Origin: a virus
Taxonomy: Duplodnaviria > Caudoviricetes
Length of the DNA stretch: 64,000 nt
Direction: 5' to 3' (one strand)
IMG/VR virus record: IMGVR_UViG_3300033498_000048
Location: 160,001-224,000 of that record
Shown: positions 4,627 through 62,924 of the stretch, piece by piece
Numbering within the stretch: the first letter of the stretch is position 1
Layout of the letters: the number at the start of each line of letters is the position of its first letter
Notes under the pieces: generated by a model
Seen by the model: the letters and a program-made list of their open reading frames with translations, nothing else
Database searches by the model: none
Told to the model about the DNA's origin: nothing
Position numbers and translations under genes: made by a program

Positions 4627-6108
4627 TCAATCTATTTCATCTTCAATAACATCAATTGGAACAATACTACTTCCAAATAAATTCGCAGTTGATAATTTAA
4701 AATTGTCAATTACCCATTTTTTAAATGTTGGATTGTCTAATATCGGTGTCCAAAATTCAGAACAATCCGTTTCTTTTAATCTCCATTTTTTAGCTTCAAT
4801 TTCACCTGTATCAAATACTCTTGAATACCAACCTTGGACTGGTTTAATAACAAGCCCTGATTGTAACCCTAACTCAATCAATCCAGTGTAAGTCGATAAT
4901 CCACCATCAAATTTAACTGTAATCGGAATCTTTGATTTCTCTATAACTACTCTTGATTTCTCAACATTTACCACAAAATTATGTCCAATTAATTCTGTTC
5001 CATCTTTTTCTTGTTGTCTACCGATAATGAAAATTGTATCTGCGGAATAATATGGACCCGTATTATGCGTTACAACTCCATTTTCCAAAATATAATGTTC
5101 AGCTTCATAGACTGAAATATCATAAACTGGCAATTTACCAACTATATTAATTGATTTGACAATCCTTCCACTTGTTTTACCAATATACCCATTTGTTGTA
5201 ACTGGAGTATCAATTTTTAAATTTTTTGCCTCTGTCCAACCATCAATTGTTAAAAATGAATGATTGTTTGAACAAGTGACACTATATCCATCATCAAATT
5301 GAATCTCATAACATTCTGGAATGCCAATATGTAACGTATCAGGATTCCATATTGAAGTAACAACTTTATCACCAATCGCAGTTCTAACCTGTTCACCAAC
5401 TTTAATGTTTTGTATTTCTTTAAGAGTGTTGTCCGACATTTGAAGCTTTGTTCCCGACACTAAACAACCTCCACTAACAACTGCTTTTGAATAGATTTCC
5501 TGTGTTTGATAGATGTGTGCCACGATAACACATGGAATGTTCTTTATTTTCATATATGGAGTAATAATTCTAAAAAATGATTTAATCTGTTTAGCTCTGC
5601 TCATATCAGCAACAGATTTTTCATCTTTAGCATCATCAACTTCTTTTTTGGATGCTATATTTCCGATTGAGTCCACAACAAAGATTACTTTATCACCCCG
5701 TTCAATTCCTTCTAATTGGTTTACCATATCGAACTTCAATTCTTCCAAATTCAGGATTGGAATGTGCATTACTCTTCCCATATCAATTTCCAATGAATTG
5801 AAATAGTCTTTAGAAGTACCAAACTCACAATTGTAAAACATTAATACAGACTCAGGATATTTGTCCATGTATTTTTTAGCCATTATCAGGGAAAACATTG
5901 TTTTAAATGATTTCGATGCACCTGCTAATATTGTGATTCCAGGTGAAAAGCCACCATCGACATCTCCCGATAACAAAATATCGAGAGATGGAATCCCAGT
6001 GTGTACGACTTCAGTTTGATTAAAAAACTTAGAGTCCTTTAATATTTCCGTTGCTTTAATTGTTGAATTGCTTTTCAATCTGTCCATCAAGCTTGTTTTT
6101 GTAGCCAT
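4627..6108 (-). CDS. uvsX: UvsX RecA-like recombinase containing a cis mini-intein
   Basis: GASKSFKT Walker A, VVDSIGN, DMSRAK, TGPYYSADTIFIIGRQQEKDG. Confidence 0.95.
   Translation of the reverse strand: MATKTSLMDRLKSNSTIKATEILKDSKFFNQTEVVHTGIPSLDILLSGDVDGGFSPGITILAGASKSFKTMFSLIMAKKYMDKYPESVLMFYNCEFGTSKDYFNSLEIDMGRVMHIPILNLEELKFDMVNQLEGIERGDKVIFVVDSIGNIASKKEVDDAKDEKSVADMSRAKQIKSFFRIITPYMKIKNIPCVIVAHIYQTQEIYSKAVVSGGCLVSGTKLQMSDNTLKEIQNIKVGEQVRTAIGDKVVTSIWNPDTLHIGIPECYEIQFDDGYSVTCSNNHSFLTIDGWTEAKNLKIDTPVTTNGYIGKTSGRIVKSINIVGKLPVYDISVYEAEHYILENGVVTHNTGPYYSADTIFIIGRQQEKDGTELIGHNFVVNVEKSRVVIEKSKIPITVKFDGGLSTYTGLIELGLQSGLVIKPVQGWYSRVFDTGEIEAKKWRLKETDCSEFWTPILDNPTFKKWVIDNFKLSTANLFGSSIVPIDVIEDEID
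5062..5466 (-). mobile_element. mini-intein (135 aa, no endonuclease) in UvsX
   Basis: VVSGG|CLVSGT...TCSNNHSFLT...VYDISV...ENGVVTHN|TGPY. Removal restores SGGTGPYYSAD. Confidence 0.95.
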
Positions 6109-6140: not shown

Positions 6141-7205
6141 TCATATATTGGTTTTAAATTTAATTAATGAGCTTACTGGACGTAAACTACTAACTTCTTT
6201 TTTCTTGGTCTTAGGTTTAATTATATGTTGAGGTTCAACAACTGTCAATTCAGTAGTTTGTTTACGGAATTGATTTAAGTTATTAACTTTAACTGGACTC
6301 CAATTAACTAAATTTGTAAAACTTTCCAATGGTTTTAAGAATGTTTTATTGAATTGGGTTTCTTTATCAACATATTTGTCTAATCCAAATTCCTCTAACA
6401 ATTCATCTGTAAATGCTATTGCATTATTTAATGTTGGATTTTGTTTGATTAAATATAAATATCTAACTTTCATTCCATTGGTAATTAATTGATATTCTTT
6501 ATCTAGTCCATATTTAAATAACTGATTATTGTAGGTTAGGCTAGCTTTGACTTGGACTGGAGTTCCAGACTTCCACGAAAATTTGTTTCCATGTAAACCA
6601 ACATCACTCCAACCACCAATGTCATTTACTCCAGTTGGCTTTGCTATATCATACAAATCAAGCTTAGGGTACGCAGCTTTAAATGATTTAACACGTTGCT
6701 GTAGGTCAGCCTCAGTTCCGTTTAATATTAGCTTAAAACAGGCTTCCAGTTCATTTTTGACTATATTTGGAGTGCTTGTTCGAGCTGTTTCAACACCAAC
6801 TGACTTTAATTTTGGTTCCGCATAACGGACATTTTCATTGTCCCAAACTTGTAAAATGTAGTTCTTTTTCGCTCTCCAAATACCCCTATCACAAATCACT
6901 TCACGTTTCATCTTTAGTGTATTATCAATTGCGTTTAAATAATTTGATAATATCGCAAATTTTTCATCTATAAATGGAGTAACCACTTCATCCGAAAATT
7001 TACTTAAATAGTCCACAATAGTATTAGTTGGAGTGTTTTGTGGAACAACTCTTTCTATTAAATTATTTAATTCTAAATACGAGGAATTATGTAGTAATAC
7101 CCCATTACCAAAAAAGTTGTGACAATCAGCAACTTCAATATCATATACCCATTCTTCTTGTATTCCCAATGATTCGATTGTAAAATTATTTGTTTCTACA
7201 AGCAT
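6141..7205 (-). CDS. gp43: DNA polymerase gp43 C-terminal piece, preceded by a 40-aa C-intein
   Basis: After HN|S come family-B polymerase motifs MKREVI, KKNYIL, KSVGVETARTSTP. Confidence 0.95.
   Translation of the reverse strand: MLVETNNFTIESLGIQEEWVYDIEVADCHNFFGNGVLLHNSSYLELNNLIERVVPQNTPTNTIVDYLSKFSDEVVTPFIDEKFAILSNYLNAIDNTLKMKREVICDRGIWRAKKNYILQVWDNENVRYAEPKLKSVGVETARTSTPNIVKNELEACFKLILNGTEADLQQRVKSFKAAYPKLDLYDIAKPTGVNDIGGWSDVGLHGNKFSWKSGTPVQVKASLTYNNQLFKYGLDKEYQLITNGMKVRYLYLIKQNPTLNNAIAFTDELLEEFGLDKYVDKETQFNKTFLKPLESFTNLVNWSPVKVNNLNQFRKQTTELTVVEPQHIIKPKTKKKEVSSLRPVSSLIKFKTNI
7086..7205 (-). mobile_element. split intein C-fragment (40 aa) of gp43
   Basis: MLVETNNFTIESLGIQEEWVYDIEVADCHNFFGNGVLLHN|S: intein blocks F and G. 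Confidence 0.95.
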
Positions 7206-8241
7206 TAATATTCTCCTGTATTCTTTTTATTTCGGTTTCAAAAAAATTGATATAATCTGTTTCCCATATTATATCTACATAATATCCCAGTGAGCGTAAA
7301 TGGTTATTTTTTATGATGTCATTATCCCATATTTGTTTTGAATTAAGGCTTTTGTTATATGGGTTTGGAGTATCACTCTCGATAAACATTTTTGGATTGG
7401 CGTGAAATACATCACCATTAAACTCTAAACAATATTTAATATCAGTAATTACAAAATCATACTTAAAATATTTAAATTGCTTAGACTCTGAAACCATAGT
7501 AGAACCAAATTCATTTTTATGTTCAGCAAAATAACAATGTTCCCTTTCGACTTCTGTTAAAATATTATCGTAAATGTTCCAACATAAATTTTGGGACATT
7601 TTAGATGCGAATGTGTGTACAGAAGAAATGTAACGGTCATATCTAATCATACCATCAAGTTCACCATACCTATTAATAAAGTTTTGAATTGTGTTAGCCT
7701 TTTTGCTACAAACATCGTTATATTTTTTAACACCATCAGTATTACCGTATTTTTCAATATAATATGGTAATACCTTTCCATTATATTTTTGTTTATCGCA
7801 ATAACTTTTCCATTTTTTATGACCTACGGTTTCACCATATCTTAAAATCATATTATCTAATGTAACAGCTCTCGATTTGTTAAACTTTAAAAAATCAAGT
7901 TCGGTCATTCCAAATTTTTCTTTTTTATATTCAAATGAATTGGTATTTGCTTGCTTATCACAATATGACTTCCACTTTTTACTACCTAATTGATTACCAT
8001 ATCTTAATATCATATTGTCCAACGTTTGGCTTTTTTTAGTTCTTAATAACAAACATCTATCTAATAAGTCATCATGTAATATATTACCATCCATAAATCC
8101 AACAATATACCCACAAATTGATTGTATGGACCAGGTATTATCTAAAAAATGTTTCTTTATTCTTAAATACTCTGATAAGTAATATTCTTTATTAACATTA
8201 CCATCTAACTTCAATTTAAAATCTTTAAAATTAACTACCAT
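7186..8241 (-). CDS. free-standing homing endonuclease (Vsr-like/DUF559-type C-terminal nuclease) between the gp43 halves
   Basis: Repeated (L/E/N)(R/K)YG units, then YDFVI...CLEFNGDVFHANP...LRSLGYYVDIIWETD. It lies between IntN and IntC. Confidence 0.8.
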   Translation of the reverse strand: MVVNFKDFKLKLDGNVNKEYYLSEYLRIKKHFLDNTWSIQSICGYIVGFMDGNILHDDLLDRCLLLRTKKSQTLDNMILRYGNQLGSKKWKSYCDKQANTNSFEYKKEKFGMTELDFLKFNKSRAVTLDNMILRYGETVGHKKWKSYCDKQKYNGKVLPYYIEKYGNTDGVKKYNDVCSKKANTIQNFINRYGELDGMIRYDRYISSVHTFASKMSQNLCWNIYDNILTEVEREHCYFAEHKNEFGSTMVSESKQFKYFKYDFVITDIKYCLEFNGDVFHANPKMFIESDTPNPYNKSLNSKQIWDNDIIKNNHLRSLGYYVDIIWETDYINFFETEIKRIQENINACRNK

Positions 8242-8297
8242 GTCACTGCCTCGTGTCTGTATAAAAATATATTTATGTAGACCTGAGGCAGTGACAT
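8240..8297 (-). promoter_or_regulatory. RBS-sequestering hairpin with an internal late-promoter-like motif upstream of the endonuclease
   Basis: 13-bp perfect stem ATGTCACTGCCTC/GAGGCAGTGACAT contains the GAGG SD and reaches the ATG. CATAAATA (minus strand) lies at 8270-8277 inside the loop region. Confidence 0.75.
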
Positions 8298-8298
8298 A

Positions 8299-10647
8299 TT
8301 ACTTCATCAACTTGATAAACTTGTCTGTACTAATAACTTCAGTTGGTTTAATTGAAATGTTTTTTCCATCACGGTTTACTATTAATGAATGGTCTGCTGT
8401 ACAAATAATTTCAGTTCCATCTACTGTAATTTTAAACAATTCTTTTTTAACTTTGTGAGCCATAACGTATTTTATTGGATTTACAACTAATTTCCCGTTA
8501 ATATCTACTCCATACGCATTTAGATTAAATACTGGTTTAACGATATTGTCAATTTCATTTTTTACTGGAATTGTATTAATTGAATCAAATAAATTCCCTA
8601 TTTTCATATCACCACAATCCATTGAAATTACCGTATCACCAACAACGGAATCTGTATCGGAATAGATGACATAATCAACTCCATTAGTTTTAAACCTAGA
8701 ATTTAAAAACTCGTTTAATCGTTTAGCAATGTATAAGATTACAAGTTGTCCAGTTAGTGTAATACCTTCCGCCATATCATTTGAAGAATATCTGAATCCA
8801 GCGTTTCCACAAGACCCATAACACGAGTTGAGTGCTAATTTTAGGGCTATTTGCATAGCTTCGTGGAATGCCGAATCAGTATATAACTTTTCCAATTCGT
8901 TCTTCAATTCAGCATCCATTAAGTTTGCTAATTTAGTAGTACCACGTTTAGACAATTCGGTTTTAATGAGTTCTATTTTTTTATCAGCAGCTATTCGCAT
9001 CGTTTTATGCGAAACACGGTCATTAAACATTTCAGTGATAATTTCTGGAATGATACCAATTTTATCTTTTGAAAACATTGCCCCATTAGCTGCCATAGCA
9101 CAATTCAGCTTTTTTAAGTGTGCTGTATCTACATTTAAATCAATTAAATCTTCCACTAAATTTCCAGTAGCAGTCTTAACTAATGTTTCATAACTCACGT
9201 TTAACATTCGCATTATTGATGGATATAATGATGTTAAATCAAATGCGACAACCCATTTATATAAACCTGGAATTGGCTCTTTAACAAATGCTCCAGCATA
9301 TCCATCACTTGATTGTTTTTGTGGAGCGGGTGGGATTTGTATTCCTTTTTTTCTAAGTGCGTTATAAACTAAACATTCCCAGTTCTTGACTTGTCCAAAT
9401 ATTTCAGATTGTTTTACTTTACACATATACGCGATTGTTAATCCAATGAAAATGTAATTTAACTTCGCGTCCAACTTTCTAGGCAACCTAACGTCTTGGG
9501 TGTTATATTCTACAAATTTATTATAAGCATACTCTTTAATGTAATTATCAATCGTGAAATAAACATCAATCAATTCATTAGCATTTAGTTTATCCAAATC
9601 AACATTTAATATGTTAATATCAAATTTAGTTGTTTGGATGTAATCTAATTCAATTGGTAATTCTTTTCCATATTGTTGTTGGACACGTTCTTTAAATCTA
9701 CCAATTTTTAATATTTCTAAATCATTGTTTGATTTTAATGCTTTTTGGGATAGTATTCCATTATATAAATTGTGTAATGAACCAAATTCTGAATAATCAA
9801 CCTTCCGTTCTGATAATTCGACTAATGCAATATTATCTAATGAATAACTCCCAAGCTTTTGGGTACTAAACTTTTTATACATTTCGATATAGTCGTATGG
9901 AGAAATACCCAATATTTTATATCCCTTTTTTAAATTATCTAATTCAATTTCGGATATAACATTTCTAGCTTTTTTGTAAAATGGACTCAATCGGTCAGCC
10001 CACTGTTTACCCAATACTTTTTTTATTCGATTGATGATATAGGGAATATCAAATTCATTAATATTGAATCCTGTTATAATATCTGGTTCTATTTTAATCC
10101 ACTCATTAACGAATGTCATTAATAAATGCCGTTCATCGTCACATTCAATATATAATTCATCTGGATTACAATGACCAGTAAATGTTTTAGTTCCAATCGT
10201 TATATAGGTTGTATTATGTGCAAACGTTGCAAGTGTGATACTTGTTACTTCATTATCAGCAACATCTGGAGGTGAATATCCAAGTACAACATCAAATGCA
10301 ACTTCAATATCAAAGTTTAAAATGTTAATCTTTGTTATATCAAACTTTATTAAATCTGGATATTCAGTTGCAATGAATTGATGTGCTAAACTTGTTTGTC
10401 CGTGTATTTGACGATAGTTTCTGTTTTTGCGAATGTACTCATTAGTTTCTTTGACACTATTGAATCGTATGCTTGATAGTTTTTCACCCATAAATCCAAT
10501 TGCATCACCTTTACCCCTGTCACTTGGTACATATAAAACAAATGGGTAATTTTCTAATATTTCAGTCTGTCTTTTTTCTCCATCAAAAAACCTATGGAAT
10601 ATCTTATTTTCTTGCACTTCAACCGATGTGTAAAACTTTTCTGGCAT
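8299..10647 (-). CDS. gp43: DNA polymerase gp43 N-terminal piece ending in an N-intein
   Basis: Exonuclease motifs FDIEV and GFNINEFDIPY; polymerase motifs FDLTSLYPSIM, KLALNSCYG, YSDTD; then the intein N-fragment. Confidence 0.95.
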   Translation of the reverse strand: MPEKFYTSVEVQENKIFHRFFDGEKRQTEILENYPFVLYVPSDRGKGDAIGFMGEKLSSIRFNSVKETNEYIRKNRNYRQIHGQTSLAHQFIATEYPDLIKFDITKINILNFDIEVAFDVVLGYSPPDVADNEVTSITLATFAHNTTYITIGTKTFTGHCNPDELYIECDDERHLLMTFVNEWIKIEPDIITGFNINEFDIPYIINRIKKVLGKQWADRLSPFYKKARNVISEIELDNLKKGYKILGISPYDYIEMYKKFSTQKLGSYSLDNIALVELSERKVDYSEFGSLHNLYNGILSQKALKSNNDLEILKIGRFKERVQQQYGKELPIELDYIQTTKFDINILNVDLDKLNANELIDVYFTIDNYIKEYAYNKFVEYNTQDVRLPRKLDAKLNYIFIGLTIAYMCKVKQSEIFGQVKNWECLVYNALRKKGIQIPPAPQKQSSDGYAGAFVKEPIPGLYKWVVAFDLTSLYPSIMRMLNVSYETLVKTATGNLVEDLIDLNVDTAHLKKLNCAMAANGAMFSKDKIGIIPEIITEMFNDRVSHKTMRIAADKKIELIKTELSKRGTTKLANLMDAELKNELEKLYTDSAFHEAMQIALKLALNSCYGSCGNAGFRYSSNDMAEGITLTGQLVILYIAKRLNEFLNSRFKTNGVDYVIYSDTDSVVGDTVISMDCGDMKIGNLFDSINTIPVKNEIDNIVKPVFNLNAYGVDINGKLVVNPIKYVMAHKVKKELFKITVDGTEIICTADHSLIVNRDGKNISIKPTEVISTDKFIKLMK
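8302..8649 (-). mobile_element. split intein N-fragment (116 aa, Ser1) of gp43 at the YxDTD motif
   Basis: YSDTD|SVVGDTVI...IICTADHSLIV (block B TxxH). Splicing restores YSDTDSSYL. Confidence 0.95.
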
Positions 10648-12327: not shown

Positions 12328-12715
12328 CCTCTAACAATAATGAGTCCAAATAGGACTCATGTTGTTTTAATATTGGCACAACTTCTTTTGCTTTAGTGTA
12401 TGAATAACCATACACTCGCTGTATTTTATCAATTAATACTGTATCGTCAATATTTTTATTCCACTTGGAATACCGTTTTCGTTTTGGTATAACATGGAAT
12501 AAAAATGTGTATTGCATTTGAATGTCCATTTCAAATCTGATATTCAATTCATTCACAAGTAAAGCCGTATCTCGATATTGAGATAGTGCTTTATTAATCA
12601 TAAATGGATTATACTCAGCAGTTAATTGTTCTTCAATTAATTCTGTTTTTCCATTTGTGATATTGTTCACAATATCAAATAAACCTAAAGATGGTTGGTT
12701 GTCCAATGTACTCAT
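12299..12715 (-). CDS. gp62: clamp loader small subunit
   Basis: YNPFMINKALSQ...KRKRYSKW...YGYS; synteny. Confidence 0.9.
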   Translation of the reverse strand: MSTLDNQPSLGLFDIVNNITNGKTELIEEQLTAEYNPFMINKALSQYRDTALLVNELNIRFEMDIQMQYTFLFHVIPKRKRYSKWNKNIDDTVLIDKIQRVYGYSYTKAKEVVPILKQHESYLDSLLLEGGKVNKKIK

Positions 12716-14106
12716 TTGAACTCCAAATCCCGCATTAACTCGGTTAGCATTGCAACTATATTCAATTCTTTATCGGAAACAAAGTTTGACTTATAATCAT
12801 AATCTGATAACGTTAGTACCAATTGTGGTAACGAACTTGGAATAACATAATCTGGGGCTTTAAGATAAATTGCTCTTGATAATGTCATTTGGGAATTGTC
12901 TAAATTACTAACAACCCATTTTCTAACCTCGTTCCATTTACTGGGGTCTCTTAAATATGTAAACAACTCATCAATATTAGCATCTGATAAACTTGTTAAT
13001 ACGAGTTCGTCCAACCTGTTATTGACCATTGATAATTGTTGTAACGTTGTTGTGATTTTTCGCATATCTGGAAAATGCGTTGTTATTACCTTCGCAACAA
13101 CATTCCTATCATATTCAACTCCCTCATGGTCTAATATTTCTAGCATTCTTTTTTCAAGTGGGAGTATCACTTCCATTTTTTCAGCTTTAGTAAGTGCAAA
13201 GTCAACAACTGCACACCTACTTTTTAATGGACCCATAATTCTATTGCTAAAATTGGCAGTCAATATAAACCTACAGTTTGCACTATAGGTTTCCATAAAG
13301 TTTCTTAATGCAGGTTGTGTGCTATTACAATTGTGAGCTACTACACCATTTTCCAAAATGAAATTGTGATTATCATCATTAGTAGTCAAATCATAAACTG
13401 GTAACATTCCCAATGATTCCATCGACACAATGGTTTTTGTTTTTCCATTGGAATCAACAAGCTTATCACCAATTTTGATACCATCCTTTTTTTCTGATAC
13501 TCCACAATATCCATTTATTGATTCAATGGTGTAAAAAGGATGGTCTTTTGTGCAATACATTCTTGAATAATCATCAAATTGTACAATGTACACTTCGCCT
13601 ATTCCCGACTTGAATACGAATGCTTCTGCTGTGTATTGTTCACCTGTTGTTGTGTTATATGATAATATATTAACTGTTTTATCATAAATTGAATCAAATG
13701 ACTTTAATTCTGGAACACCATCTATATTCACAGTGTAAATATGTTGGTTTCCAGCAAAACAATTTAAATAATCGGCTTCATCTAATAATACTACTTTATA
13801 TCCACCTCTATTCTTCATACTAACGGTGCTAGCATAACGTTCAATCGTAGTTCGGAGCGTATCAATGTTCCCATCTTTCGAGGCATTGATTTCCAGTAAG
13901 TCAATGCCCATATCACTACACAACGCTCTTGGAATTGTGGTTTTTCCAACACCCTGATAACCAGTGAACAACATATTTGTTATTTGTCCACTGTCAATAA
14001 TAGCTTGAAAATAGTTTTTTAATCTCGATGGTAAAATAACATTAGCCATCGTTCTTGGACGAAACTTCTCAGCCCAAAGTGGTTGATTCGGAGTAATATC
14101 CAACAT
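12712..14106 (-). CDS. gp44: clamp loader large subunit with a cis mini-intein
   Basis: LWAEKFRP, GYQGVGKTT, LLDEADYL, SRC. Confidence 0.95.
   Translation of the reverse strand: MLDITPNQPLWAEKFRPRTMANVILPSRLKNYFQAIIDSGQITNMLFTGYQGVGKTTIPRALCSDMGIDLLEINASKDGNIDTLRTTIERYASTVSMKNRGGYKVVLLDEADYLNCFAGNQHIYTVNIDGVPELKSFDSIYDKTVNILSYNTTTGEQYTAEAFVFKSGIGEVYIVQFDDYSRMYCTKDHPFYTIESINGYCGVSEKKDGIKIGDKLVDSNGKTKTIVSMESLGMLPVYDLTTNDDNHNFILENGVVAHNCNSTQPALRNFMETYSANCRFILTANFSNRIMGPLKSRCAVVDFALTKAEKMEVILPLEKRMLEILDHEGVEYDRNVVAKVITTHFPDMRKITTTLQQLSMVNNRLDELVLTSLSDANIDELFTYLRDPSKWNEVRKWVVSNLDNSQMTLSRAIYLKAPDYVIPSSLPQLVLTLSDYDYKSNFVSDKELNIVAMLTELMRDLEFK
13330..13761 (-). mobile_element. mini-intein (144 aa) in gp44
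   Basis: DEADYLN|CFAGNQ...CTKDHPF...VYDLT...ENGVVAHN|CNSTQPALR. Confidence 0.95.
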
Positions 14107-45845: not shown

Positions 45846-46934
45846 TTATGTACCATCGCTGAAGAATCCAAATATTAAATGATTGGATTCTTCATTGTTT
45901 AAATAATTTTCACGCATTGACATTCTAGTGTCTAAATTTGTTAAATCGTAAAAATAGTCTTGACTTGTTAGCCATGCAAATATAACTAAGGTCATTACAA
46001 TATCATCGTGTTTACCACGTTCAGCTTCATAGGAAGTTCCCTTCTTAATAAACATAGTCAACTCTGTAATTGTATTGTAATCTACTAATTCTAAGGTATC
46101 ACTTTCAATTAGATTTTTTAATGTACTACATCCTATTAATTTGGTCTTTTTAGTTTGTCTTATTCCAACAATACTTGAATCTGTTATTATCGTATCTCCC
46201 TGCTTAGATTTTGATGTTAGCATATTTTCATATTCATATTCATAATACAATATGTTTGCTACTATTGTTCCAACACTATTGGATTCAATTACAATATAAG
46301 CATCATTATACTTTTTCGAGATGTGATATGATTCATCTGCAAACATAAAAGGAACAATTTGATTGTTCCTATAAACAGCAACTTGTTTATATCGCTTCTC
46401 AGTGACATCAATTATTGATATTACAGAATAGTCTTTGCCCATTCCCTCAGCAACATCAATAATTGAAATGTACGAATTACCTTGAATTGGATGCTCATAA
46501 ATGTATAAAGAATCGTTGATAACTTCTAATGGTTGTTTGTGGGTTAATTGTTGTAATTTCTTACCTGATATTAATGTACCAGAACTTCCAAGGAAATTAC
46601 AATTGTGACTGAGTATTCCATTAGTGTAATAAACACTATCTGTTCCAACATCAATTAAATCATACATTTCAATTGGAACATCTATCAGCTCTTTGTCAAT
46701 AACAAAACAACCATCCATATTAGTATCAACAAAATCACCTATAACCAACTCAATTGCCGTTTTTATTCCATCAATGGTAACTAATGGATGATTATCAGAA
46801 CATACCAAGTTAGTTCCATTAGAAAAACTTAACTTGATTTGCCTATCTTTGTTAATTTTATTAATCCCAATAAACGGTTCAAACCCATTAGGTGTTAAAA
46901 CTGTTAATTGTAAGTTGTTTGTTAATGTTGTCAT
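45846..46934 (-). CDS. gp17: terminase large subunit piece C (IntC-2 plus nuclease domain)
   Basis: After SHN|C come CNFLGSSGTLISG, DVAEGMGKDYS, IESN, HDDIVM. Confidence 0.95.
   Translation of the reverse strand: MTTLTNNLQLTVLTPNGFEPFIGINKINKDRQIKLSFSNGTNLVCSDNHPLVTIDGIKTAIELVIGDFVDTNMDGCFVIDKELIDVPIEMYDLIDVGTDSVYYTNGILSHNCNFLGSSGTLISGKKLQQLTHKQPLEVINDSLYIYEHPIQGNSYISIIDVAEGMGKDYSVISIIDVTEKRYKQVAVYRNNQIVPFMFADESYHISKKYNDAYIVIESNSVGTIVANILYYEYEYENMLTSKSKQGDTIITDSSIVGIRQTKKTKLIGCSTLKNLIESDTLELVDYNTITELTMFIKKGTSYEAERGKHDDIVMTLVIFAWLTSQDYFYDLTNLDTRMSMRENYLNNEESNHLIFGFFSDGT
46602..46934 (-). mobile_element. atypical split intein C-fragment 2 (111 aa), AceL-TerL-like
   Basis: VLTPNGF...LVCSDNHPL...MYDLIDV...YYTNGILSHN|C. 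Confidence 0.92.
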
Positions 46935-46949
46935 TATTATTCCATATCG

Positions 46950-48299
46950 TTATATGACATTGCAATTCAATCTATTATTTGTTGGATATACTGAAACCTT
47001 ATCAATAACATGACTATCAATTATTATTGAGTGTATTGTTCTTCCTATAAACGATTGTTTGTTTAGCCTTTCAACATATATTTTAACCCCGTTTTGCGAC
47101 TCGACTGATTTCTTCAATCTGTGTTTTAGTGGACTCTTTAATACCATGCAATCACTCGTAATTCCATTATACAATTCAATTATTTTATTTAATATTTCAC
47201 ATCCAATTATACTTTTACCAACAACTATTGGAATAGTTAAATTTGAATTAAATGCTAAACTAATAGCAGCATCATATATTAAATTGTTTGATATTTCAAA
47301 ATCGCGAGTACAATATTCTGGAGTTTGACTATTGTTAATTAATTGATATAAATCTCCAAATGTAATATTGTTACAAATTGAATTTTCGGATTTAATTATA
47401 ACTTCGGTATTAGCGGAACAACAATCATATTCTTGTGAGAAATTTTGTGTCCCAATATTACTTTCGGTTGTTTGTCTCCACGCTTCATCGCGTTCTGGGT
47501 GGTCATACCACAAATATTTACTCCTAACAAACTCATTTCTACCCTGTTCAGATTCAATCCACAGTTTGTAAAACAAATTCATACCTTTTGGAGTAGACGT
47601 GATTATCACCTTAGTTGTTTTTCCAGATGATATTACTGGGTAGGTTGATTCAAAAAATTCAACATCATTGTCAATATGGGCGAACTCATCACAGTAGAGT
47701 GTTCCAACTGATTTACCCCTGATGGAACTTGATGATGTTGCTGCACTAAAACACTTTGAACCATTCGCCAGTGTGATACTTGTTTTGTTCCAAGTTACAA
47801 CTCCAGGTTTTAAAAACCAAGGCAACTCCTCAAACATCTTACATAAACGGTCTAATATTTCTGCGGAAGTAGCTCCCTTATTTGCTAATATTCCAATCGA
47901 CTTATTACTATTGAATATTGCCTCATATAACAAATAGGCTGCTGCTGTTGTTGTATTGTGACTTACTATTCCATTTGAATAATATTGGTGTGATTCAGAA
48001 TCAACTTCAACATCATACATATTCTCGTATTCAGTTGTATTAGTAATTGATATTACTTTTGATGTACCGTTAATAGTTTTAATCACATCACCAATTATTA
48101 AGTCTTTAACAAATACTTCGGAATTGTATTCTGACATTACTATATGCGTATCTGCACACTCTAATTTTGCTCCACAATCAAACTCAACAACCCATTTTTC
48201 ATACGGAACAGTTTTCATTACATTTGTACAATTTACCCAACCTTCTGGGGTAAATACTTCCCAATCTGTAATTGGAATAACCCTCTCAAACTTCCTCAT
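46950..48299 (-). CDS. gp17: terminase large subunit piece B (IntC-1 + ATPase core + IntN-2 + extra tail)
   Basis: SHN|TTTAAAYLL, ILANK, IRGKSVGTLYCDEFAH, STPKGMN, FSQEYD|CCSANT. Confidence 0.95.
   Translation of the reverse strand: MRKFERVIPITDWEVFTPEGWVNCTNVMKTVPYEKWVVEFDCGAKLECADTHIVMSEYNSEVFVKDLIIGDVIKTINGTSKVISITNTTEYENMYDVEVDSESHQYYSNGIVSHNTTTAAAYLLYEAIFNSNKSIGILANKGATSAEILDRLCKMFEELPWFLKPGVVTWNKTSITLANGSKCFSAATSSSSIRGKSVGTLYCDEFAHIDNDVEFFESTYPVISSGKTTKVIITSTPKGMNLFYKLWIESEQGRNEFVRSKYLWYDHPERDEAWRQTTESNIGTQNFSQEYDCCSANTEVIIKSENSICNNITFGDLYQLINNSQTPEYCTRDFEISNNLIYDAAISLAFNSNLTIPIVVGKSIIGCEILNKIIELYNGITSDCMVLKSPLKHRLKKSVESQNGVKIYVERLNKQSFIGRTIHSIIIDSHVIDKVSVYPTNNRLNCNVI
47334..47423 (-). 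mobile_element. atypical split intein N-fragment 2 (about 30 aa)
   Basis: CCSANTEVIIK...NITFGDLYQLI parallels short TerL-type IntN (C..xT.V...I.DLY). The end coordinate is approximate. Confidence 0.85.
47955..48299 (-). mobile_element. atypical split intein C-fragment 1 (115 aa)
   Basis: EVFTPEGW...LECADTHIV...MYDVEV...YYSNGIVSHN|T. Confidence 0.92.
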
Positions 48300-48837
48300 T
48301 TATGATTCCATTTATCAACTTCAATGTATCACATTGGTCACTAGGTGTGTCATTATTTACTAATATAGTATTAGCAAAATTTGATTTTAATATATTGCGT
48401 ATTTTAGTTTTTCTACCCTTTAAGAATGTTTGATTTTGGTTACTACCTCTATCCAAATACCGTTTTTCCAAGTCTGTTGATTGTAAACATATAATATGTA
48501 AGGTTGTGTTTGCAATCTTAGAATAATACTCGAATAAACTAGATGACGATAACCTATCCCCTTCAAAAATAATTGTTGAATTTGTATTAATATCATCTAT
48601 TATAAATTCTTTAAATACTGGCATTACATTCATAGCCAACTTGTCTGTTCCAGAAAATGTTTCTGTTGGATTAGAGTAATCGCCAACTATTTTAACAACA
48701 CCAATATCATGGTACTTAACCAATTTCATATACTTCTTCATATCGGTTACATCAACGTTCAATGATTCAATTAACCGTTTCATTAAAGATGTTTTCCCAG
48801 TTCCAGGCTCGCCTATTATTGCTATCATTTTTTGCAT
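48286..48837 (-). CDS. P-loop kinase of the 5-hydroxymethyluracil DNA kinase type
   Basis: IGEPGTGKT, FSGTDKL, IIFEGDRL; adjacent to the aGPT-Pplase gene. Confidence 0.75.
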   Translation of the reverse strand: MQKMIAIIGEPGTGKTSLMKRLIESLNVDVTDMKKYMKLVKYHDIGVVKIVGDYSNPTETFSGTDKLAMNVMPVFKEFIIDDINTNSTIIFEGDRLSSSSLFEYYSKIANTTLHIICLQSTDLEKRYLDRGSNQNQTFLKGRKTKIRNILKSNFANTILVNNDTPSDQCDTLKLINGIINEEV

Positions 48838-49973
48838 ACAAATCCCCTAAGTGATTGATTGTTTGTTTTGTAATAAGTATCATTATAATCATTTTTAAAA
48901 CAATCGTGTTCAAAGTTCAACATTACAACTTGACCCGTGTTCCTAAAATGATTTTGTTTGTCCTTGTGTACACCTTTACATCTTGGGTTATATTCAAATA
49001 GTAAATACTCAGGTAAGCAATTATGTCTAATATTCCAGAATAAATCAAAACGTTTATTCCATTTAATTTCAGCATATTTTATTCTATCGTGAAACATATC
49101 ATTATACACATTTGGATAACGTCTATTTTTCCTATACCACGATTTGTAGCAGCACAAGGTTGATTCTAATGTAAAATAATTTACATCATTAATATAATTT
49201 TCTTCCTTGAACCTACCAATACATTCGCTTAACAGTACACCACCTTCAATTGTTAATGCTTCAATAATACCTTTATCATATTTACCATCAAAATCTGGAT
49301 TAGATTGTGAATGCCAATCTAAATCGTCACGCCCCAATACCTTGCACAAACCATTCCTATGTGATTTACTACCATTCAAATCATGTAAAAACAATGAACT
49401 ACAGCAAATATTTAAGCCTATTATTTTCAAATATTCTAAATATGAAAATGTCGATAGTCTCCCGAATAAGTAAAACTTATCAATTACAGTTTTCCATACT
49501 GTATCAAAATTATCAAATTGGTTGTCGGTATTGCACATTGATGTGAAAAAATTATGTTGAGTATCGTATTTAGAGATTATTTCTTTATAATTTAGAATCA
49601 TATTCTCTAATTTATTTTTTACATATCTCCTATCTGTATCCCAACCAAACTTAGTATAGTTTTCTCTGAAAAAAACAGAAAATTTGTCAATATCGAGTGT
49701 GTTAAAATCACTAAAATTCTCAAACAAAATCCATGATGTAATAATATTTTGACAACAACCATTTAAAAACACCAACCAATATTGCTGCTCTATATTTAAA
49801 TTGTGTATTTTAATTAACTCTGGAATGACATAATACACTGCCCCAGGGTGTGATTTATATTTTAAATGGAATTGATAAAACCTAATAAATGTTTCACGCC
49901 GATATTTGTGTTCCCTGAAATCAGAACCAACAACCAAGTTTGAATCATTGTTGCTGTTAATTTTAAATACCAT
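48825..49973 (-). CDS. aGPT-Pplase2 / amino acid:DNA transferase-like protein
   Basis: DTDRRY, FGRLSTFSYLEYL, SKSHRNGL, FTLESTLCCYK, RRYPNVY. Confidence 0.8.
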   Translation of the reverse strand: MVFKINSNNDSNLVVGSDFREHKYRRETFIRFYQFHLKYKSHPGAVYYVIPELIKIHNLNIEQQYWLVFLNGCCQNIITSWILFENFSDFNTLDIDKFSVFFRENYTKFGWDTDRRYVKNKLENMILNYKEIISKYDTQHNFFTSMCNTDNQFDNFDTVWKTVIDKFYLFGRLSTFSYLEYLKIIGLNICCSSLFLHDLNGSKSHRNGLCKVLGRDDLDWHSQSNPDFDGKYDKGIIEALTIEGGVLLSECIGRFKEENYINDVNYFTLESTLCCYKSWYRKNRRYPNVYNDMFHDRIKYAEIKWNKRFDLFWNIRHNCLPEYLLFEYNPRCKGVHKDKQNHFRNTGQVVMLNFEHDCFKNDYNDTYYKTNNQSLRGFVCKK

Positions 49974-51375
49974 AATTTGTTCCTGTAAAATATTGTAATA
50001 TAGGTTTATGATATTGCTCTAACCAATCTTTGCCATTATCTTTAGTTAGTAAGAACTCATACCACTCCCTAGCACATTCATAATTACCATCTTTTTCTAT
50101 TATATTACCAAAAGAATTTGTTCCAACTCCATTCCAACCTTTGATATTTGAATTGTTTTTCCTCAACTCAACAAATTCTTTTCGGGCTTGCTCATATTCA
50201 TATGTGCCTAGTGATAACATCCCTTCATGTAAAAATGCTATCACACTAACACGTTCAGCATCGGGTTCATGTAACACTATCTCAGTATTACCATGTAAGC
50301 CTTGCATATTATTGATTAATAGTAAATCGCGGGGTCTAATATCAATTGCATATCCAATTTCAGGTAATACTAAATGTCCACCAGAATAATTATCATTTTT
50401 GGATAATACACATAAATTAGCAAAACCTTGTTCCATGTTTGCTGGGTCATAATGTGCTGAGGTTCTGAAATTTTTATTTACAGTAATAGTGGTAAATGGT
50501 GTGTTAGGTACAATGAACTTATTATCTATTTTATCACAAGCTGCTAGTTGATTAGCATACCTAATTGGTAATAACTCTTTGAATAATTGTGCCAGCCTTT
50601 CTAAAAATGGAAAAGATAATTTAAATTTTTCATAGTTGTTTTTTGTGTATGCCGTTTCACGCCCAAACGGAATCCTTGGGTATCTATCATAATATCCAGC
50701 AACCCCAGAGTTTACAAAGTTTGCGTATATTGTTTTTGATATGTACGATTTAACCAATTTACAATTATCTACAATAGTTGTAAATTCATATTGTCCAGAC
50801 TTAATTGTACTAATTAATTCAAAATACCACAATTCAAAATTAAAATTATTTATAATAACTTTATTAGATATGTAAACTTTATCGGTATATTCTGGTTCAC
50901 TTTTATACACCTCAAATATTGATTCCAACTGTAATATTGTTTCAGTTGTAATTCTTTTACAATTAATTAAAATATCCAGTATAGAAAGTTCTTGTTTTGT
51001 TGCTCTGACCCTATTACCATGTAATCTAGTGTTTATTTTTCCACTAGCATTACCTCGATTATCTGTTGGAACTGCTGCGTCAGCCAACCCATCATACCCA
51101 GATTCAACTTCAGATTGAGTGAATGCGTTTTTTCTAAACTTGAATAGTATGTATTTTTCTGGATTTGAATTAACACACCTAATACAATCATCTTTTGTTT
51201 GGCAGTTATTACCTTTAGCATATTTTAATAACCCTCCAGGGTTACAAGAATCATATAGATATAAGTCGGTATCTTCAGTTATTAATGTGTGGTATGATGT
51301 ATCATCTAACCACTCCCTAACCAATTCTTGTTTGTTAGTATAATCTTTAATTGTTAAAACTATTTGTTTAACCAC
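49963..51375 (-). CDS. TET/JBP-family 2OG-Fe(II) dioxygenase
   Basis: TPFTTITVNKNFRTSAHYD (HxD), GGHLVLPE, LHGNT, RVSVIAF; GATAAATA at 51409-51416. Confidence 0.85.
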   Translation of the reverse strand: MVKQIVLTIKDYTNKQELVREWLDDTSYHTLITEDTDLYLYDSCNPGGLLKYAKGNNCQTKDDCIRCVNSNPEKYILFKFRKNAFTQSEVESGYDGLADAAVPTDNRGNASGKINTRLHGNRVRATKQELSILDILINCKRITTETILQLESIFEVYKSEPEYTDKVYISNKVIINNFNFELWYFELISTIKSGQYEFTTIVDNCKLVKSYISKTIYANFVNSGVAGYYDRYPRIPFGRETAYTKNNYEKFKLSFPFLERLAQLFKELLPIRYANQLAACDKIDNKFIVPNTPFTTITVNKNFRTSAHYDPANMEQGFANLCVLSKNDNYSGGHLVLPEIGYAIDIRPRDLLLINNMQGLHGNTEIVLHEPDAERVSVIAFLHEGMLSLGTYEYEQARKEFVELRKNNSNIKGWNGVGTNSFGNIIEKDGNYECAREWYEFLLTKDNGKDWLEQYHKPILQYFTGTNYGI

Positions 51376-60329: not shown

Positions 60330-61097
60330 GTGAAATGGAGACATGATGTCTCCATTTCACATATGGGGAGAATAAGAAAGATGAAAGTTTACAATGTAGA
60401 TTGTTTAGTTGGAATGAAAGAAATTGAAGATAGCTCGATAGACCATATAATATGTGATTTGCCATATTTTCAGGTATTAAAGAATGATTGGGACAATGCG
60501 TGGAAATCAGGACAAGAATATTTAGGATGGATAAATCAAGTAATATTAGAATATAAGCGAATTATAAAGCCAAATGGAAACATAATATTGTTTGTGGGTC
60601 GCCAATATAGTCACAAGATATGTTCAATGTTGGATTTACATTTCACAGAGAAACGAGTCATAATATGGTCAAGAAAGCGAAACTTAAATAACTCTAGGGG
60701 AAAGGCATTATCTAGTGGATATGAATTGATTTTATATTATTGTAATGGTGTTAATGGAACATTTAATAACATAAAAATAAAACGTGAATCTAATAGAAAA
60801 GAATACACCACTGGAATATTAAAGGATGGAGTTAGTTTATCGGATGTATGGGATGATATTCCAGCATTACCTCACAATTCAAAAGAAAAATTAAAACATC
60901 CATCACAGAAACCAATTAGATTAATCCAACGAATAGTCGATTTATTTACCAATGAAAATGATATTATATTAGACAATTGTGCTGGAACAGGTACTACTGG
61001 AATAGCGTGTTTGAATGGTAATAGAAAGTTCATATTGATGGAATCCAACAAAGAATATTGTGATATAATAAATGACAGAATTACTGGCACAGTGTAA
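60330..61097 (+). CDS. second orphan N6/N4 DNA methyltransferase (beta class)
   Basis: CDLPYF, HPSQKP, ILDNCAGTGTTGIAC; true start probably MKVYNVD. Confidence 0.92.
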   Translation: MKWRHDVSISHMGRIRKMKVYNVDCLVGMKEIEDSSIDHIICDLPYFQVLKNDWDNAWKSGQEYLGWINQVILEYKRIIKPNGNIILFVGRQYSHKICSMLDLHFTEKRVIIWSRKRNLNNSRGKALSSGYELILYYCNGVNGTFNNIKIKRESNRKEYTTGILKDGVSLSDVWDDIPALPHNSKEKLKHPSQKPIRLIQRIVDLFTNENDIILDNCAGTGTTGIACLNGNRKFILMESNKEYCDIINDRITGTV

Positions 61098-62205
61098 AGA
61101 ATTGCTTAATGTTTCTAATAAGTATAATTTAGCCTCGGCTGCAAAGCACATTAAGCTTGATGTAATTAAAGCAACACAAGCATTTCCAGATAAAATAACG
61201 TTATCACAAAGAATACGAGCTATTGCTGACAATAATGCTTGTATTTGTCCATATTGTGGAAAGGTACACGGTAATCCATATCGAGATTATTGTAATCAAC
61301 AATGTTACACAAAACATACAACAGCTAATGCTATATCCAACAAAATCAATAAACTAATTCAAGCAGGTGAAATAAAATATGCTGGTTTAGTTGAAGGTGT
61401 CGATTATCTTGTTTGTCAAGTTTGTGGATGTAAGTGTCAAGATGTAGGTAAACATAGTAAAATCCATGGATTATCTGCTACAGAATATAAACTAAAATTT
61501 GGCATTAAGAAAACTAAAGCTGATATTATTTGTAAATATGGAGCAGATAATCCAGGTTATCAACATGGTGGGAAGTTTTCTAAATGGTCAAAGAATTACA
61601 TCCACGGTTATGACGAAGTTGCTCATAAAGAGTTTAAAGAAAAACAGTCTAAATGTAGGACAAACAACCCAACCAATCATTTTTCTAGGGCGCACTATTC
61701 TAGCGATGCTGAATATAGTAAAGCTCAATCCAGAGGATTAGATTATTTTATTAGAAAATATGGCGATGCTGGAATTGATAAATGGCATAATAAAAATATG
61801 AATATGCAGGTATCTCAACCAATTATGTCTTTTAAATCTTTGTGGACAAATAGAAGTGAGGTTTTAGGACATTTCTACATCCTTAAAATATCAACTGATA
61901 AAATAAAAATCGGAATAACAACAAGAAAGGTGGTGAAACGGTATTGTAATAGTGTTGATGTGATAGTTGATTTAGAATGTACAATATCTATAGCATTTAT
62001 GATTGAACAATTAACAAAACGACAATTTATAAACTTTTTAATTGATAAAAATGATGCTGTAACTGGATTTGGGTGGACAGAAACATTTAACATTAATTGT
62101 TTAGAACCGATGTTGAAATCAGTCGATACTTATGTGAATAATACTGATATGTTATCGACTGATTTCAAATCAACATTTAAGTTGAAATACCCTGACCGTT
62201 TTTAA
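61072..62205 (+). CDS. putative free-standing homing endonuclease (Zn-finger N-terminus, GIY-YIG-like C-terminus)
   Basis: CPYC, CQVCGC...HGLSATEYK.KF; FYILK...IKIGITTRKVVKRY...E.F. Confidence 0.65.
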   Translation: MTELLAQCKELLNVSNKYNLASAAKHIKLDVIKATQAFPDKITLSQRIRAIADNNACICPYCGKVHGNPYRDYCNQQCYTKHTTANAISNKINKLIQAGEIKYAGLVEGVDYLVCQVCGCKCQDVGKHSKIHGLSATEYKLKFGIKKTKADIICKYGADNPGYQHGGKFSKWSKNYIHGYDEVAHKEFKEKQSKCRTNNPTNHFSRAHYSSDAEYSKAQSRGLDYFIRKYGDAGIDKWHNKNMNMQVSQPIMSFKSLWTNRSEVLGHFYILKISTDKIKIGITTRKVVKRYCNSVDVIVDLECTISIAFMIEQLTKRQFINFLIDKNDAVTGFGWTETFNINCLEPMLKSVDTYVNNTDMLSTDFKSTFKLKYPDRF

Positions 62206-62299
62206 TACTTAGATTGAACAAATCTACAATTGTAATTTCCTCAATGGTATTTGTAGATTTGTTCCTGATTGTTAGTTTTGTTTCTGGTGACACACATTT
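62177..62299 (-). CDS. gp17: terminase piece A exon 2: Walker A Lys plus 39-aa split intein N-fragment 1
   Basis: Not in the ORF track. Manual translation K|CVSPETKLTIRNKSTNTIEEITIVDLFNLSIKNGQGIST*. Confidence 0.9.
   Translation of the reverse strand, partial: KCVSPETKLTIRNKSTNTIEEITIVDLFNLSIKNGQGIST
62216..62264. other. 14-bp perfect inverted repeat inside the IntN-1 coding sequence
   Basis: GAACAAATCTACAA / TTGTAGATTTGTTC, just past the stop of the opposite-strand endonuclease. Confidence 0.7.
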
Positions 62300-62609
62300 C
62301 AATATCTTCAGTGATATTCGCTAAATATCACCCGTTTATTAGACTGCTTTAGCTTTTCGCTAAATGTTGAGACTATATCTTAGTGTTTAATAAACACCCC
62401 TAATGTTTCGAGATTGCTTAATCCCTACGGCATATTGCCTAGTCGTTGAACTGCTTCCAGTGTGGTTACATTCCACTTAGGAAACTAGCTGCTGATTTAC
62501 CAATTCTTGATATTGTCACTGTGTTGTATTATTTCTAATACAATTGAGTAATCAAGACTCTAAGGTTGTTCCAGCAATTAAAAAGGTTTTACATGGGCAA
62601 GTTCATCCC
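62300..62609 (-). ncRNA. group I self-splicing intron (310 nt, no ORF) in the terminase gene
   Basis: P AATTGCTGGAA, Q AATCAGCAG, R GTTCAACGACTA and S AAGATATAGTCT in order. P1 AUGGGU/GCCCAU has a U-G pair at the 5' splice site; terminal G. Splicing gives in-frame RQMG|K. Confidence 0.93.
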
Positions 62610-62924
62610 ACCCATTTGTCTTGATAGTAAACATAAATTAAATCTATTTTCCTGGAAAGATTTAATCATTTTTTGTTGATATGGATATAATTTAAATTTA
62701 ACTAAACCTTCATCTAAGTTTACGATATAGACATAGTTTTCAATAAAGTAAATTATGTCAGTGGCACATTTGTAAATTTCCCTAATTTGGTCTTCAGTGT
62801 ATGATAATAGAGTTCCAGCCTTCATAAGTTTTGTATTTCCGTTGTAACAAAACTTATCTTTGTTTAGTGTTGGGGAATCTTCTACTGTTTTATGTGTGTT
62901 TATAGGAACTATTTGAGTTTCCAT
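62610..62924 (-). CDS. gp17: terminase large subunit piece A exon 1
   Basis: YNGNTKL, EIYKCATDIIYFIENYVYIVNLDEGLVKFKLYPYQ...RFNLCLLSRQMG; ATG at 62924 after a GGAG SD. Confidence 0.93.

Follow-up and report, generated by a model that had tools for sequence, protein, structure and literature searches.

How does a phage assemble its large terminase (TerL) when the protein is encoded in three separate pieces bordered by intein halves, and what keeps those halves from joining the wrong partners? This question is raised by the open reading frame (ORF) at 46950-48299 on the minus strand of a 64,000-nucleotide stretch of DNA (the window, to which all coordinates refer), corresponding to bases 160001-224000 of the 305,782-bp IMG/VR virus record IMGVR_UViG_3300033498_000048, which has direct terminal repeats and is estimated to be complete. 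The window has a G+C content of about 30%, and its structural and replication genes are T4-like. The single frame of 449 amino acids (aa) is the middle piece of TerL (piece B) and consists, in order, of a C-terminal intein fragment (IntC-1, residues 1-115), the ATPase core (116-292), the N-terminal fragment of a second intein (IntN-2, 293-322), and a 127-aa tail. All four intein halves and all three TerL pieces were located, with pieces B and C adjacent and piece A 14 kb away across a gap that holds genes on both strands. Judged from its sequence, piece B is probably the middle part of a three-polypeptide large terminase that would need two protein-splicing steps. The original prediction had placed IntC-1 at the N-terminus and IntN-2 near the C-terminus of the same chain; family matches, alignments, and an AlphaFold2 (AF2) model bore out this IntC-extein-IntN topology, with the correction that IntN-2 does not lie at the end, as 127 residues come after it.

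IntC-1 (47955-48299, minus strand) carries block B (ECADTHIV), block F (MYDVEVDSESHQYY), and block G (NGIVSHN, in the terminal ...YYSNGIVSHN), so that SHN directly precedes Thr116, the +1 residue. It matched the atypically split inteins VidaL (6VGV, E 8e-6) and CatC (6DSL_B, E 3.5e-5); in the AF2 model it reached a predicted local distance difference test (pLDDT) value of 76-95, a root-mean-square deviation of 1.5 A to 6VGV, and a template modelling (TM) score of 0.72 by target to 6DSL_B. Seven residues (A49, D50, H52, D96, H104, H114, and N115) were invariant across its homologues. The following 177 residues (extein B, 47424-47954, minus strand) are the TerL ATPase core, which starts with the Thr directly after the Walker A Lys, as judged against T4 gp17, contains Walker B (LYCDEF), and ends in QEYD, where the hinge leads into the nuclease domain; this part matched Pfam Terminase_6N (2.7e-23) and residues 167-321 of T4 gp17 (E 4e-36). 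IntN-2 (47334-47423, minus strand; CCSANTEVIIKSENSICNNITFGDLYQLIN) begins after QEYD with Cys293, the first Cys of a 'CC' pair, as its Cys1, and comprises beta1-beta2-alpha1 with an S2-type split, the AF2 secondary structure showing strands at 299-304 and 307-313 and a helix at 314-322. A PDB search with the short IntN fragments returned zero matches; IntN-2 aligned column for column with its counterparts in other middle pieces and with the beginning of a contiguous intein that occupies the same site in the protein P0002.

Piece A is split over two exons. Exon 1 (62610-62924, minus strand; 105 aa, METQ...LLSRQMG) encodes the N-terminal subdomain up to the Walker A Gly and was found by tblastn with residues 6-85 of the uninterrupted TerL of cyanophage S-RIM2 (E 2e-18). 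A 310-nucleotide group I intron with no ORF (62300-62609, minus strand) follows between the Walker A Gly and Lys codons, one codon upstream of the insertion point of intein 1. A whole-window Rfam run at the gathering threshold missed this intron, which a local search recovered above threshold (RF00028, 56.1 bits with gathering at 50; E 1.6e-13). It also showed the other hallmarks looked for in a group I intron: U.G at the 5' splice site, within the P1 stem AUGGGU/GCCCAU, a terminal G at 62300, and restoration of the frame on joining the exons; its fold z was -3.6. Four DNA runs of this phage showed no joined exons. Exon 2 (62177-62299, minus strand) supplies the Walker A Lys, IntN-1 (39 aa, CVSPETKLTIRNKSTNTIEEITIVDLFNLSIKNGQGIST), and a stop codon, and the joined exons read ...SRQMG-K-CVSPETKL.... 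IntN-1 aligned with about 50 other loci, with the consensus C....T.I.IRNK.TGEI.EI.IGEFY. On the opposite strand, a 377-aa ORF (61072-62205, plus) converges on exon 2 and overlaps its last 29 nucleotides, within IntN-1; it showed only a weak ROS/MucR zinc-finger match and may be a free-standing endonuclease tied to the intron or the intein.

Piece C (45846-46934) has its ATG 15 nucleotides past the TAA stop of piece B and in the same frame. Its first 111 residues are IntC-2 (46602-46934, minus strand), with block B CSDNHPL and SHN (109-111) before Cys112, and they matched CatC (6DSL_B) at E 3.7e-19 over 107 residues. Residues 112-362 (extein C, 45846-46601, minus strand; 251 aa and the stop codon) form the TerL nuclease domain, matching Pfam Terminase_6C at 1.4e-16 as the sole copy in the genome. 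The block-G codons of IntC-2 and IntC-1 lie in a 30-nucleotide direct repeat (46602-46631 and 47955-47984) of 83% identity; together with the homologous IntN codons, this places short repeats on both sides of the ATPase core, which could favor its duplication or deletion.

The complete 305,782-bp genome held one Terminase_6N and one Terminase_6C domain only, with no TerL_ATPase family match. The three exteins (106, 177, and 251 aa) add up to a predicted mature TerL of 534 aa (61 kDa), and the joined junctions, RQMGK/TTT and QEYD/CNFLGSSGTLISG (slashes mark the joints), restore conserved TerL motifs as compared with uninterrupted TerL and T4 gp17. Catalytic residues are intact in both inteins: Cys1/Thr+1 in intein 1 and Cys1/Cys+1 in intein 2, each with block B T/SxxH and the terminal HN. 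We infer that splicing takes place, and in the following order. The group I intron would be removed from the piece-A mRNA; IntN-1 of piece A would then meet IntC-1 at the N-terminus of piece B, joining ...SRQMGK to TTTAAA... and rebuilding the Walker A loop; IntN-2, behind the ATPase core of piece B, would pair with IntC-2 at the N-terminus of piece C, joining ...QEYD to CNFLGSS... where the ATPase domain hinges on the nuclease domain; and the 534-aa TerL would be the end product. If this holds, the locus represents natural tandem protein trans-splicing, in which three polypeptides and an RNA splicing step yield one essential enzyme.

In both TerL inteins, the split follows the first beta-hairpin and helix, leaving a short IntN (30 aa in intein 2 and 39 aa in intein 1) and an IntC of about 110-115 aa that contains block B. 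This S2 split site has been reported for AceL-TerL and GOS-TerL (PMC13014065), and Dassa et al. 2009 described the GOS terminase split intein as a 'Terminase' fractured gene with a 122-residue C-part lacking motif N1 only (PMC2677866). Intein 2 is, by sequence, a member of the AceL/GOS-TerL ('Cat', PDB 6DSL) family: its C-fragment shows the HINT homology, its split is of the S2 type, and it has Cys1, the terminal His-Asn, and Cys+1, sharing with AceL-TerL, GOS-TerL, and Cat the host protein, the split type, and the Cys at +1. Its insertion site would likewise be the AceL/GOS-TerL site, judging from the +1 Cys and family membership. Intein 2 departs from the S2 form of the family (IntN of about 25-37 aa, IntC of at least 100 aa) in the 127 extra residues behind IntN-2, a pseudo-ATPase tail which sets it apart from AceL-TerL, GOS-TerL, and Cat. 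Moreover, AceL-TerL, GOS-TerL, and Cat were described and used as single split inteins, whereas here a second, homologous split intein resides in the same protein.

That second element, intein 1, agrees with the family in homology and split architecture (VidaL and CatC matches, IntN of 39 aa, IntC of 115 aa), and its sequence identifies it as a sister lineage at the P-loop site rather than an AceL/GOS allele. In a maximum-likelihood tree of 72 IntC domains, computed on their last 105 residues, a single branch (support 96/91) divided the 62 site-1 sequences from the 10 site-2 sequences without exception, and split and contiguous forms were intermixed within site 1. This marks the two inteins as paralogous lineages of long standing, each bound to its own site. 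Salmonella phage SFP10 and Vibrio phage VPALA carry contiguous P-loop TerL mini-inteins of 159-173 aa at the same site as intein 1 (RQSGK/C ... SHN/T), with a homologous C-terminal half; unlike the split intein 1, these are encoded in one piece in a single TerL gene and splice in cis, so that no choice of partner arises. Contiguous mini-inteins at the same sites were found in P0002, P0041, P0054, L009, and L048, as well as in SFP10 and VPALA, and both inteins therefore belong to ordinary splicing-competent families.

The IntC-extein-IntN layout is common in uncultured phages and not unique to this phage. When 5.8 billion proteins were searched with piece B, about 26 clusters among the top 120 were piece-B-like proteins of 303-356 aa with IntC-1, the core, and a short IntN-2, seven of these clusters having been checked by alignment. 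Three-piece loci with flanking DNA were recovered from at least seven further metagenomic lineages (L003/L004/L007, L005/L006, L017, L020, L023, and L038), in some of which piece A lies beside piece B or a few kb distant. Variants were also present, with intein 1 contiguous and intein 2 split (L009, L048, P0041, and P0054), intein 2 contiguous (P0002 and L012/13), or intein 2 absent (P0011 and P0031); among the cultured phages seen, only contiguous forms occurred. The TerL middle pieces P0004, P0016, and P0020 continue in frame past IntN-2 into a true GIY-YIG nuclease domain, which indicates that bulky extensions are tolerated there and suggests that the atypical split site arose from an endonuclease gene inserted after alpha1. 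The literature searched yielded no report of natural tandem trans-splicing, in which two split inteins would assemble one protein. What is new here is that two known kinds of TerL intein are both split within one gene, and that this recurs in metagenomes; essential phage motors evidently tolerate being cut into three or four proteins, commonly so in uncultured T4-like phages.

The tail behind IntN-2 (46953-47333, minus strand; residues 323-449) is a degenerate partial copy of the chain's own ATPase core. Residues of about 340-439 (46983-47282) are collinear with the stretch of about 123-221 in extein B (BLASTP E 4e-8, 26% identity), and hhalign profile comparison matched residues 343-428 to 119-204 with a probability of 94% (E 1e-7). 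The copy has no Walker A, and the DE of Walker B has become DS. An ESM Atlas model of the tail stretch gave structural matches that were all Terminase_6N clusters (TM score 0.75 by query), and the homologous tail of P0049 matched the TerL PHROG phrog_5989 at 1e-5. AF2 modelling of the tail alone from a three-sequence alignment was unusable (pLDDT 37), and the tail in the full-length AF2 model (pLDDT 66-83), possibly biased by full-length TerL alignment rows, was not relied on. A MAFFT alignment with P0004/P0016 had suggested a decayed GIY-YIG endonuclease; this candidate was rejected, as Pfam gave no nuclease or other match at E <= 10, BLASTP against a true fused GIY-YIG domain gave E 0.12, and homology to the chain's own ATPase core was significant. 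The tail of P0049/P0051 is 50% identical and represents a longer copy; HMMER over 1.8 billion proteins returned only P0049 as a further relative, and scans of IMG/VR and JGI contigs returned none. In these 1.8-kb ENA contigs, an atypical 115-aa IntC of a third intein, located at Walker B (..SLISN/CILLDEFAH), stands at the N-terminus and is followed by a 97-aa extein, IntN-2, and the longer pseudo-ATPase tail, an order implying, as far as sequence goes, a TerL in four or more pieces.

As to its origin, the tail is most likely a relic of recombination, for instance by unequal crossing-over between the homologous inteins on either side of the core. The tail occupies the gap in which relatives carry a homing endonuclease; its frame is open in this phage and in one other lineage, and may stay so here because piece C starts right behind it, and it would leave together with the excised intein. 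The tail could, less probably by far, serve as a built-in device for selectivity or assembly, blocking the folding back of IntN-2 onto its own IntC-1 or docking piece B onto the nuclease piece. We consider this unlikely; if true, it would be a natural way for cross-reactive atypical split inteins to behave orthogonally and for two short-IntN inteins to coexist.

The IntC-extein-IntN chain is the arrangement used for engineered backbone cyclisation (SICLOPPS). The original prediction had reasoned from this likeness that cross-reaction would circularise the ATPase core or join piece A directly to piece C, and this logic is sound: IntN-2 paired with IntC-1 would yield a circular core, and IntN-1 paired with IntC-2 would leave the core out of the product. 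With IntC-1 and IntN-2 on one chain, these wrong partners meet at a high local concentration, and neither of the two mis-spliced products would be functional. Because the terminase is the sole one and the layout recurs in many lineages, mis-splicing must stay low in vivo, and it is very likely that the cognate pairings are selective enough there. This selectivity could come from the intrinsic selectivity of the IntC fragments, from kinetics, from the neighboring genes B and C being co-translated, or from a combination of these.

Several observations weigh against a spliced and partner-selective three-piece terminase. The source genome is a metagenome assembly whose viability is assumed, and among the sequencing runs checked for this phage, no RNA run contained it. 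A pseudo-ATPase tail follows IntN-2, and only one other lineage (P0049/P0051) has such a tail. IntN-1 and IntN-2 of this phage are 44% identical (16/36) with the same hydrophobic pattern, and no class signature separates the IntN fragments, the identity between IntN-1 and IntN-2 (33-37%) equalling that among IntN-2 orthologues (32%) over seven genomes. Furthermore, the IntN of GOS-TerL can be replaced by that of AceL-TerL, according to a review (PMC11766414), and in a 24 x 24 matrix, cross-reaction was found mostly among atypically split inteins (PMC7090010, Pinto et al. 2020). The similarity of the IntN fragments and the published cross-reactions favor the possibility that the TerL inteins cross-react measurably, with the dead-end products (cyclic B and A-C) tolerated or avoided by kinetics or by co-translational pairing of B and C. 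Membership in the same family, the shared S2-type split, and the mere 15 nucleotides between B and C speak further for it, and the pair would then be no clean tool. However, IntC-1 and IntC-2 are only 31% identical (same-site orthologues share 35-54%) and represent lineages that parted long ago; an intramolecular meeting of IntN-2 and IntC-1 would be costly even at weak affinity, yet the layout is stable in many lineages. Three-piece phages also keep an RNK motif in all IntN-1 and in none of their IntN-2, a pattern which, in a small set of non-independent cases (L009, L003, L017, L020, L023, L038, and P0054), may be a faint trace of selection against cross-pairing; the motif is present in IntN-2 of two genomes with a contiguous intein 1. 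Measurable cross-reaction is a serious possibility, although we consider it less likely than not. Character displacement between IntN-1 and IntN-2 gave no signal (37% identity within genomes and 33% between, n = 7), and net charges did not separate the two IntN classes.

Two other explanations concern the splicing and the gene structure themselves. One or both split inteins might no longer splice, with non-covalent docking alone making TerL a three-chain complex. Fragmented phage enzymes held by mobile-element-derived domains have a precedent (PMC3045599), and the unusual tail behind IntN-2 could hamper splicing; nevertheless, every catalytic position is intact in both inteins and conserved among homologues, the CatC family to which IntC-2 belongs is active in splicing in vitro, and a Walker A loop cut between Lys and Thr is hard to picture as functional without a peptide bond. 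We regard docking alone as quite improbable. The break between B and C might instead stem from an error of assembly or sequencing, or from a nonsense mutation that struck a contiguous intein 2 very recently; B and C would then be one gene, as the shared frame of the B stop and the C ATG, with only TAA and five codons between them, might suggest. Against this, the split position matches that of other lineages, whose IntC-2 pieces have their own start codons; the region before the stop is the pseudo-ATPase tail rather than intein, and this tail is present in P0049 too; read-through would place about 130 foreign residues in the HINT fold at the S2 site; and the source contig showed no differences at a depth of 22, a check which covered the piece A region only. 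An artefact or fresh mutation is accordingly the remotest of the readings considered, and a terminase joined from three polypeptides by two splicing steps remains the one we favor.

Mutual orthogonality of the inteins, as proposed in the original prediction, is partly supported: it is reasonable but stands on weaker ground than its wording suggests, since the two TerL inteins are related by descent and of a kind prone to promiscuity. We infer its degree from sequence comparisons, which leave the chances of intrinsic, tool-grade orthogonality between intein 1 and intein 2 about evenly balanced. If orthogonality truly held, the two would form a matched set of atypically split inteins with IntN of about 30-39 aa, which is rare and could aid one-pot semisynthesis from three segments, and a comparison of cognate and non-cognate interfaces would show the basis of partner specificity in a somewhat promiscuous family.

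Engineered tandem protein trans-splicing with orthogonal split inteins has been reported (Shi & Muir 2005; Pinto et al. 2020, PMC7090010). SICLOPPS and tandem trans-splicing share with this locus the IntC-target-IntN chain and the joining of three fragments by two split inteins, respectively. SICLOPPS differs in that both halves come from a single intein and serve to cyclise the chain, whereas here the halves derive from two inteins and cyclisation would be a failure; engineered tandem systems use unrelated inteins, whereas the TerL pair is homologous and has a short IntN in both members. The suggestion that the inteins would make a useful set for three-fragment ligation therefore holds in that some use is conceivable, with the gain being incremental, given that sets of 15 orthogonal split inteins already exist (PMC7090010) and that three-segment labelling or ligation is already cited in PMC13014065. 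The biology may interest phage and intein specialists more than this modest tool value.

The gp43 split intein, which had been named as a third member of that set, is present and of the canonical kind. The gp43 DNA polymerase locus (6141-10647, minus strand; parts 8299-10647, 7186-8241, and 6141-7205) has an IntN of about 110 aa behind YSDTD/S and a 40-aa IntC ending in LLHN/S, with Ser1 and Ser+1. Cross-reaction with the TerL inteins is unlikely because a 40-aa IntC cannot complete an IntN of 30-39 aa, and on these structural grounds the gp43 intein is likely orthogonal to both. The 351-aa ORF between the gp43 halves matched phrog_22677 and, weakly, an REase-like family (REase_MTES_1575), and the locus fits a fractured gene, in which a split intein has a free-standing homing endonuclease gene between its halves on the same strand. 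TerL pieces B and C, in contrast, are not a fractured gene in the sense of Dassa 2009, having 15 nucleotides between the genes and no endonuclease gene; nearer to this form are some TerL relatives, namely L005 with a DUF723 ORF between B and C, and others with GIY-YIG fused to IntN-2.

The T4 late-promoter motif TATAAATA showed no enrichment and was uninformative. Genes for a Tet/JBP dioxygenase, an amino acid:DNA transferase (ADDT), and a P-loop nucleotide kinase (48286-51375, minus strand) lie directly upstream of piece B, with the kinase gene overlapping its start by 14 nucleotides; they likely form a DNA hypermodification cassette, situated between the halves of split intein 1. The UvsX recombinase (4627-6108, minus strand) and the gp44 clamp-loader subunit (12712-14106, minus strand) each contain one contiguous intein, as indicated by Intein_splicing matches, and all five inteins found in the genome fall inside the window.

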